64,000 bases of DNA, taken from assembly GCF_003334385.1 (NCBI RefSeq), contig NZ_QOWN01000009.1, one strand, 5' to 3'. The notes under the pieces are model-generated. The model was given only the letters and a program-made list of their open reading frames with translations. It had not been told where the DNA came from and ran no database searches. The stretch comes from Escherichia coli. Lineage in GTDB: Bacteria > Pseudomonadota > Gammaproteobacteria > Enterobacterales > Enterobacteriaceae. Below are positions 4,889 through 5,403 of this stretch, piece by piece. Every line of letters begins with the position of its first letter. Position 1 is the first letter of the stretch. A program made the position numbers and the translations under genes.

Positions 4889-4920
4889 CGGCCCTCTTCG
4901 TGGGAAGAGGGCTATTTTGT
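4889..4920. terminator. bidirectional rho-independent terminator between convergent ggt and yrhB
   Basis: Hairpin gccctcttcgtgggaagagggc followed by a T-run; sits between the ggt stop (4882) and the yrhB stop (4920). Confidence 0.6.
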
Positions 4921-5204
4921 CAGGGCAAGCCGAAGGTAGCCTTTTTTATTTCGTAATCCTGTAGATATTCTTCCAGCGGTTTTGCCGTTCCCAGAGAATG
5001 AATTTCACCACTGTCTTTATCAATAATAAAAGGTGCGTTACCAGCTAAGCGCGCGGCCTCATCTCCAGTTTCGAGAAATTCTCGTGCTTCGAAACAGAAA
5101 TACCAGCCCTGGCTAAAGCGTCCATGTAGAGTAATGACGACCGGGAGATCTGCATCATCAAGGTAATGGTTCGCTTTCGCGAATGCGTCGTGATAAGTAA
5201 TCAT
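4920..5204 (-). CDS. yrhB: small conserved protein YrhB (function unknown)
   Basis: 94-aa ORF MITYHDAFAKANHYLDD...; normal GC content; sits next to the AT-rich islet. Confidence 0.75.
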   Translation of the reverse strand: MITYHDAFAKANHYLDDADLPVVITLHGRFSQGWYFCFEAREFLETGDEAARLAGNAPFIIDKDSGEIHSLGTAKPLEEYLQDYEIKKATFGLP

Positions 5205-5403
5205 AATTATAATAAATATTATTGTTGAGTGTTATATTATTATTCCTGTGTGATACATTGAGCAAAGACGCGTTCATCTTCGTCAAAGATATTATTAAAT
5301 GCTGGTTTTGAAAAAAGTTCATCGGATAAGATATAGTCACGAAATAAGTATCTGCTAATATTTTATGATTTCTTTTTCAGAACGTCGAACGGGATTTTCT
5401 TAT

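Follow-up and report, generated by a model that had tools for sequence, protein, structure and literature searches.

yrhB at the yhhY-ggt junction of Escherichia coli is an Imm35-family gene, probably an orphan left by the exchange of a Hcp toxin end

Gene content of the yhhY-ggt junction

The genes between ggt and yhhY form a variable locus with conserved flanks. The window analysed here is a stretch of 64,000 nucleotides of E. coli DNA, and all coordinates refer to it. The right-hand flank is ggt, for gamma-glutamyltransferase (3140..4882, plus strand; placed by the annotation of strain VR50 and the list of open reading frames), and the left-hand flank is yhhY, annotated as an N-acetyltransferase (7560..8048, minus strand). 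The segment 4800..7600 is 100% identical to E. coli VR50, and K-12 and O104:H4 have the same gene array. In other strains yhhY adjoins ggt directly, or yrhB alone lies between them.

The array begins with a Hcp-toxin gene and its putative immunity gene. The fusion gene yhhZ (tssD) spans 6145..7323 on the minus strand. Its Hcp N-terminus and linker (6667..7323, minus strand; T6SS_HCP and TIGR03344 matches) are conserved and common to Hcp-toxins with other C-termini. Its C-terminal part (6145..6666, minus strand) has weak Pfam HNH and Col-Pyo_DNase matches, suggesting an HNH-type nuclease of the Hcp-ET1 type that would belong to an incoming cassette. The next gene, yrhA (5654..6148, minus strand; NCBIfam YrhA, E=6.4e-35), overlaps the yhhZ stop by 4 nt and, judged by its position, encodes the cognate immunity protein for the HNH toxin end; the literature name for its product is ETI1 (10.1101/2024.03.05.583533). 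In K-12 MG1655 an IS1 element lies at the 3' end of yrhA (equivalent to window ~5650..5750), and this putative immunity gene is therefore truncated there. The yhhZ toxin protein of MG1655 is identical to that of the window (WP_000065894.1).

Two apparent relics separate yrhA from yrhB. The first is yrhD (annotated at 5404..5559), which together with its upstream frame (5404..5646, minus strand) matches an 84-aa protein of Citrobacter, 84a of locus L034, by tblastn and is a candidate immunity gene remnant. The second (5243..5401, minus strand) corresponds to the first 54 codons of an 85-aa Citrobacter protein, also by tblastn, and is a pseudogene. An AT-rich junction without a Shine-Dalgarno sequence follows (5205..5242, minus strand; defined by alignment with Citrobacter DNA), immediately 5' of the yrhB ATG. 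The yrhB gene (4920..5204, minus strand) has an ATG start and an intact frame of 94 aa; its Pfam match (PF15567) and its toxin-coupled orthologs point to an orphan immunity gene of the Imm35 family. A 60-aa open reading frame with a GTG start (5158..5340, minus strand; from the list of open reading frames) overlaps the 5' end of yrhB and is judged to be a chance frame from shuffles and lineage comparison. As the original prediction stated, yrhB lies tail-to-tail with ggt, which ends at 4882. A GC-rich, terminator-like hairpin with a 10-bp stem followed by a T-run (4890..4913, not assigned to a strand) is located between the two convergent genes, and it is also found in strains without yrhB. 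The GC content of yrhB had been called normal, which holds roughly; at 0.456 it is somewhat under the roughly 0.5-0.6 of the flanking genes. The DNA from ~5205 to 7500 is AT-rich, with a GC content of 0.26-0.39.

The locus has the layout of a Hcp-ET polymorphic toxin, with a conserved Hcp N-terminus, a variable toxin C-terminus, and an immunity gene immediately 3'. At least four different C-termini are found on one Hcp N-terminus at the yhhY-ggt locus, each followed by an overlapping or close small gene. In yhhZ residues ~195-235 (window 6620..6760, minus strand), the Hcp-toxins of the locus are alike up to '...AEKLGGDA...KT.G..I.A.S.L', a short hydrophobic stretch, and divergence starts right after it. 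By analogy with VENN in CdiA or the end of the Rhs core, this stretch may be a demarcation or recombination point.

At least four versions of the junction (window 4883..7559) occur in E. coli genomes: one has the full Hcp-ET1 array, another only yrhB, a third no gene at all (yhhY directly after the ggt terminator), and a fourth a DUF4225 gene. The last is found in O157:H7, where it encodes a 303-aa protein. Among 5426 complete E. coli genomes, yrhB is found in 4069 (~75%) and is absent from ~25%, the spacer is found in 3809, and at least 80% of the 2.8-kb array is found in 3758. In a 'yrhB-only' strain (L002:6406-6515, compared with window 4860..4915), part of the spacer between yrhB and yhhY, TTTTTCGACGGGGTAGTTAAGTC..., has some loose similarity to the ggt 3' end, TTTAACGGCGGGGTACTAAGGTTAG...; this resemblance could be an old duplication trace at the insertion site, or chance.

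YrhB as an Imm35 protein and its toxin-coupled homologs

YrhB is, by its sequence, a protein of the Imm35 immunity family, an assignment already present in Pfam and NCBI names. The original prediction had called yrhB an orphan immunity-like gene, and the outcome is stronger than it anticipated: the profile search it proposed gives a full-length match to Pfam Imm35 (PF15567) with E=4.6e-23, in which residues 5-83 align with model positions 1-85 of 85; its orthologs are paired with toxins of the Gln_amidase type, and no cognate toxin is present in the window. An exhaustive phmmer search gave a family of 1018 cluster representatives. In an alignment of 58 sequences W34 is invariant, and G33, F36, G55, N56, P58, G66, G72, and T73 are nearly so; the YrhB of the window has every one of them, keeping W34 and all nine near-invariant family positions. 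Imm35 was defined by Zhang et al. 2012 (PMC3482391), and the conserved tryptophan and small-residue motif of that study (W, [ST]) is present in YrhB. According to its text, Imm35 goes only with Tox-PL1 and is probably a peptidase inhibitor, and its tables include Ntox40 among the Imm35-associated toxins as well. An identity as a Phd antitoxin was rejected, the NCBIfam match being below threshold (E=0.12). PADLOC gave nothing for YrhB, YrhA, or the small proteins of Citrobacter, and Pfam gave no match on YrhA or on the toxin C-terminus of Citrobacter hcp1.

Close homologs of YrhB are encoded next to toxins of a single type. Homologs with 63-83% identity lie directly 3' of toxins with a papain-fold Gln_amidase/Tox-PL1 C-terminus (Pfam lists Tox-PL1 as Gln_amidase, PF15644). 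Those of Pectobacterium and Yersinia kristensenii, with 63-67% identity, immediately follow a CdiA that ends with PT-VENN, DUF6862, and Gln_amidase domains, and the stop and start codons overlap by 1-4 nt; some of the Pectobacterium homologs follow orphan CdiA-CT fragments. E. fergusonii and Citrobacter portucalensis, whose YrhB orthologs are 83% and 72-73% identical, respectively, have at the yhhY-ggt locus a Hcp-Gln_amidase fusion of 383-386 aa whose stop overlaps the start of the ortholog. The Gln_amidase domain in these fusions was confirmed (PF15644, E=1.2e-17), and their translations contain the NC...H...DxQ motif, which is the signature described for Tox-PL1 (Zhang et al. 2012, PMC3482391). 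Limnobaculum has two copies of the YrhB homolog, which lie in a small-gene array with DUF596 and MafI2-like members, and in Enterobacter the homolog is a stand-alone orphan. The adjacency of toxin and immunity genes is established for YrhB homologs in five independent contexts.

YrhA homologs are found in other settings. In Leclercia (L032/L033) a YrhA homolog follows a 379-aa DUF8093 protein and not a Hcp fusion, and the locus adjoins a CdiA gene with Imm63 and Imm70 genes. This context suggests that the YrhA-type immunity cassette moves between delivery systems.

The predicted structure of YrhB is compatible with an inhibitor of the protease type, and nothing in it looks enzyme-like or otherwise contradicts this. 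The compact, small model has very high confidence (pLDDT 94) and a PepSY/cystatin-like fold. It has moderate similarity to two extracellular metalloproteases, 4k90_B and 3nqz_A; from the chains and their lengths, the matched parts look like propeptides. A Foldseek search with the model gave nothing significant. YrhB has no sequence relatives in the PDB, where the best match of the family profile is an engineered binder (8c12, 'PAK5-Af17') with a non-significant E value of 0.5, and the PDB sequence and profile searches found no Imm35 member with a solved structure or tested activity.

Probable exchange of the Hcp toxin end and the origin of the spacer

Comparison with E. fergusonii places the breakpoints of a toxin-end exchange. 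Two blocks of DNA are homologous between E. coli and E. fergusonii. One, window 7387..6667, takes in the region upstream of hcp and its first ~219 codons, with 93.5% identity; the other, window 5208..4880, includes yrhB, with 87% identity. The DNA that separates them is 490 nt long in E. fergusonii, where it encodes the Gln_amidase end, and 1458 nt long in E. coli (5209..6666), where it comprises the part of yhhZ for the HNH toxin end as well as yrhA, yrhD, and the AT-rich spacer. The Hcp proteins of the two species are 86% identical through about residue 235, including the hydrophobic linker, and have no similarity after it; the yhhZ C-terminus is wholly unlike the Gln_amidase ends of E. fergusonii and Citrobacter. 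On the side of yrhB, homology resumes at 5208 for E. fergusonii and at ~5220 for islet-free E. coli. A displaced toxin C-terminal module, raised in the original prediction as a general idea, is borne out in this form. The comparison it suggested with strains that differ at the junction included islet-free E. coli, and E. fergusonii and Citrobacter have Hcp-Gln_amidase there.

The old toxin end left no recognizable trace in E. coli. No Tox-PL1/Gln_amidase toxin lies directly upstream of yrhB in the window. The Gln_amidase toxin ends of E. fergusonii, Citrobacter, Pectobacterium, and Yersinia were used as tblastn queries, and no Gln_amidase remnant was found in window 4900..7400, with no match below E=2 in 5205..5653. 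In the window segment, two other E. coli lineages, and an islet-free strain, the same four ends matched only the shared Hcp N-terminus. The toxin-end DNA of E. fergusonii has no match in the 5426 complete E. coli genomes at the DNA level (blastn 'distant'). The cognate toxin is therefore absent from the locus and, at the DNA level, from the genomes, and the immunity frame is intact, so that yrhB appears as an orphan.

Citrobacter arrays account for the DNA between yrhA and yrhB. YrhA homologs in Citrobacter led to gene-richer versions of the yhhY-ggt locus. The order in C. youngae is Hcp-HNH (70% identical to yhhZ over the full length), a YrhA-like gene, an 85-aa gene, an 83/87-aa gene, and ggt. 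In C. portucalensis L034 it is hcp1, 84a, 84b, 85a, YrhA-like, 85b, Imm35, 87, hcp2, 86, and ggt, and the E. coli order of YrhA, 85-aa gene, and Imm35 corresponds to an orphan run in this array. The L034 array (2767-8120) has two Hcp-toxin genes with different C-termini that lack a Pfam match, and eight small genes. These include three families of uncharacterised 83-87 aa proteins, one winged-helix-like in look, and the families recur as apparent cognate or orphan immunity genes.

Both relics align with genes of these arrays. The Citrobacter 85-aa protein, whose gene follows YrhA homologs in Citrobacter, matches window 5401..5243 (minus strand) over residues 2-54 with 47% identity and E=1.5e-12 (tblastn). 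In E. coli the start codon of this relic is gone, the homology ends after codon 54, and the 3' third is deleted; the lineage of the window also has an in-frame TAA at 5363..5365 where other lineages have CAA. Relative to Citrobacter L034, ~130 nt are deleted in E. coli, a loss that took away the last third of the 85-aa gene together with the Shine-Dalgarno sequence in front of Imm35. The 84a protein matches window 5646..5470 (minus strand) over residues 8-66 with 39% identity and E=5.9e-10 (tblastn), in the yrhD frame extended upstream of the annotated yrhD start. Other E. coli lineages have only part of yrhD or a copy with an internal stop, and the gene appears, from this alignment, to be a relic of the 84-aa gene. 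Because 84a overlaps the end of hcp1, which encodes a different Hcp-toxin, 84a and yrhD are immunity candidates. Judging from these matches, the spacer relics derive from small immunity-array genes and not from a toxin, and in frames other than that of the ORF at 5158..5340.

The most probable explanation, with a probability of roughly four in five, is that yrhB is an orphan Imm35 immunity gene left after a swap of the Hcp toxin end, its ancestral partner having been a Hcp-fused Gln_amidase. The ancestral state would have been like that of E. fergusonii and C. portucalensis, with a Tox-PL1 end on Hcp and the toxin stop overlapping the yrhB start. Recombination in the E. coli lineage would then have exchanged the 3' end of hcp, which encodes the toxin, and one crossover would have fallen within the conserved Hcp/linker part, near codon 220-235. 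With the new DNA would have come the HNH-nuclease end, yrhA, and further small immunity-array genes that have since decayed (yrhD and the 85-aa relic). The old Gln_amidase end would have been wholly removed while yrhB stayed, and yrhB would be an orphan because of this exchange. Parsimony across three taxa suggests the direction of the swap. Since the order YrhA, 85-aa gene, Imm35 is common with Citrobacter L034, arrays may move as blocks, and the history was probably not one simple event.

Role of YrhB and comparison with known systems

YrhB probably acts on toxins of the Gln_amidase type. It would bind and block them, probably as a PepSY/cystatin-like inhibitor, and its retention in ~75% of E. 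coli may reflect protection against toxins that neighbours deliver by T6SS (Hcp fusions) or CDI (CdiA). With the ancestral translational coupling lost and no Shine-Dalgarno sequence in front of it, yrhB may be expressed from promoters in the AT-rich spacer. A promoter scan of the spacer was uninformative, with four sigma-70-like sites where 2.6 are expected. A sigma-S SELEX site has been located between yrhD and yrhB (PMC5493296). Going further, it is a tentative reading, somewhat short of an even chance, that selection keeps YrhB in most E. coli as a cross-species shield against Gln_amidase toxins of E. fergusonii, Citrobacter, Pectobacterium, or Yersinia (T6SS Hcp-ET5 type or CDI), and that the layers of the locus (yrhA, yrhD relic, 85-aa relic, yrhB) record a series of clean Hcp toxin-end swaps, which left only immunity genes behind.

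A different role has been described for YrhB. It could be mainly a housekeeping stress protein, with ATP-independent chaperone-like activity needed at extreme heat, its membership in an immunity family being historical only. The published experimental description of YrhB as chaperone-like is attributed to Ahn et al. 2012 in a passage of PMC10723866, and YrhB is among the chaperones listed in PMC6598250. It has been reported to be cold-shock-induced with an H-NS-type 5'UTR (PMC7873864), and the sigma-S site upstream of the gene as well as the small, compact, and confidently predicted fold fit such a role. However, yrhB is missing in ~25% of E. coli genomes and frameshifted in others, which is unusual for a core stress function, and all of the close homologs are in toxin or immunity contexts. 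A mainly housekeeping function is therefore unlikely. The chaperone and immunity roles are not mutually exclusive, and the chaperone-like activity may come as a by-product of being a small and very stable binder, or it may be a second function.

The gene could also be a functionless remnant, drifting to loss as yrhD and the 85-aa relic have done and kept because it is short and the swap is recent. It has lost its Shine-Dalgarno sequence and translational coupling, its neighbours in the array have decayed, and it is absent, frameshifted, or extended in some strains. P0010 and P0089, two divergent E. coli 'paralogs' of yrhB, proved to be alleles of this locus, one kind having lost the stop and the other being frameshifted. 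However, five of six diverged E. coli alleles have an uninterrupted yrhB frame despite synonymous divergence of up to ~0.2, all of the family-conserved residues are retained, and the adjoining relics decayed over the same period. Among the orphan E. coli alleles dN/dS is ~0.06-0.46, with only 3-12 synonymous differences per pair, similar to the 0.21-0.27 between E. coli and E. fergusonii, where the gene is paired with its toxin; most of the 4069 genomes with yrhB have near-identical copies. At the level of allele comparisons these values show yrhB to be under purifying selection, and that it is a mere remnant is quite improbable.

The ORF at 5158..5340 is, as far as sequence analysis can tell, a chance frame and neither a gene nor a toxin relic. 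It overlaps the 5' end of yrhB out of frame in AT-rich DNA, as had been noted, by 47 nt. With the yrhB part fixed and the spacer shuffled so that dinucleotides were preserved, an ORF of at least 60 aa arose in 357 of 2000 shuffles (18%). In four of four diverged E. coli lineages (96-97.5% identity) the frame is stopped after ...LNV/LKV, before yrhB. It runs from cassette DNA into yrhB across the homology limit at ~5208-5220 seen with E. fergusonii and islet-free E. coli, and its codon starts (modulo 3) are at 0, compared with 1 for the 85-aa relic and 2 for yrhB. Among 5.8 billion proteins its only matches are near-identical E. coli read-throughs; the concatenated query (yrhD frame, a 59-aa frame, and this ORF) gave only E. 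coli matches of at least 92% identity, and since homologs of two of its spacer frames were found only later through Citrobacter synteny, such a word-indexed search is weakly sensitive for short decayed frames. The suggestion that this ORF is a relic of the C-terminal module of the displaced toxin can be set aside as having almost no chance of being right. Its position would fit, directly 5' of an immunity gene, which is where the end of a toxin gene would be looked for, and at a locus where a toxin end was indeed displaced. However, its length is no greater than chance allows, it is truncated in all four other lineages, it has no homologs fused to Hcp or to Rhs/CDI C-termini and no match to Gln_amidase, none of the four Gln_amidase ends matches this region, and the DNA that it occupies aligns, in another frame, with an 85-aa gene that does not encode a toxin.

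The preferred reading, an orphan Imm35 gene left by a toxin-end swap, gives a concrete function prediction for a y-gene of K-12, namely that YrhB would neutralise Gln_amidase/Tox-PL1 toxins. YrhB is still uncharacterised in UniProt and appears as a chaperone in reviews. The yhhY-ggt junction would be a hotspot for the clean exchange of toxin ends fused to Hcp, with an accumulation of old immunity genes, and decayed immunity-array genes would explain yrhD and the AT-rich spacer. The orphan-immunity principle is known from Rhs and CDI, and Imm35 is already in Pfam, so the gain is incremental. The syntenic reconstruction and the recognition of yrhD and the spacer as probable decayed immunity-array genes are a modest advance.

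YrhB shares the main properties of the Imm35 proteins of Zhang et al. 2012 (PMC3482391). It has a full-length HMM match, the conserved W and the G-x-[ST]-type positions, homologs encoded right after Tox-PL1/Gln_amidase, and an alpha+beta fold as predicted for the family. Unlike the Imm35 norm, yrhB stands alone, with no Tox-PL1 at the locus or, at the DNA level, in E. coli genomes.

The neighbouring genes resemble Hcp-ET systems. Polymorphic T6SS effectors of this kind were reportedly described by Ma et al. in 2017, among them Hcp-ET1 (HNH-DNase) with ETI1 and Hcp-ET5 (papain-like peptidase) with ETI5. The yhhZ-yrhA pair matches the layout of Hcp-ET1/ETI1, the pair that was studied experimentally in O104:H4 and strain 55989; O104:H4 has the same locus with an identical YrhB protein, and the spacer of 55989 is 100% identical. 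The Hcp-Gln_amidase of E. fergusonii and Citrobacter matches the papain-like Hcp-ET5 clan. The stacking of orphan immunity genes 3' of Hcp-ET1 at yhhY-ggt was worked out here and does not come from the literature.

There are also parallels with contact-dependent inhibition and with Rhs systems. Like CdiI, the YrhB homologs with 63-67% identity in Pectobacterium and Yersinia directly follow a CdiA-CT (Gln_amidase); unlike CdiI, E. coli yrhB is linked to a Hcp/T6SS locus and not to cdiBAI. Rhs and CDI orphans usually keep a toxin C-terminal fragment before each immunity gene, whereas the yrhB locus has immunity genes and relics only. Limnobaculum and Citrobacter have arrays of the orphan-immunity type that include Imm35. 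Overall the locus resembles rhs/cdi orphan modules and orphan-immunity islands, where an old toxin/immunity cassette gives way to a new C-terminal one and its immunity genes persist downstream.
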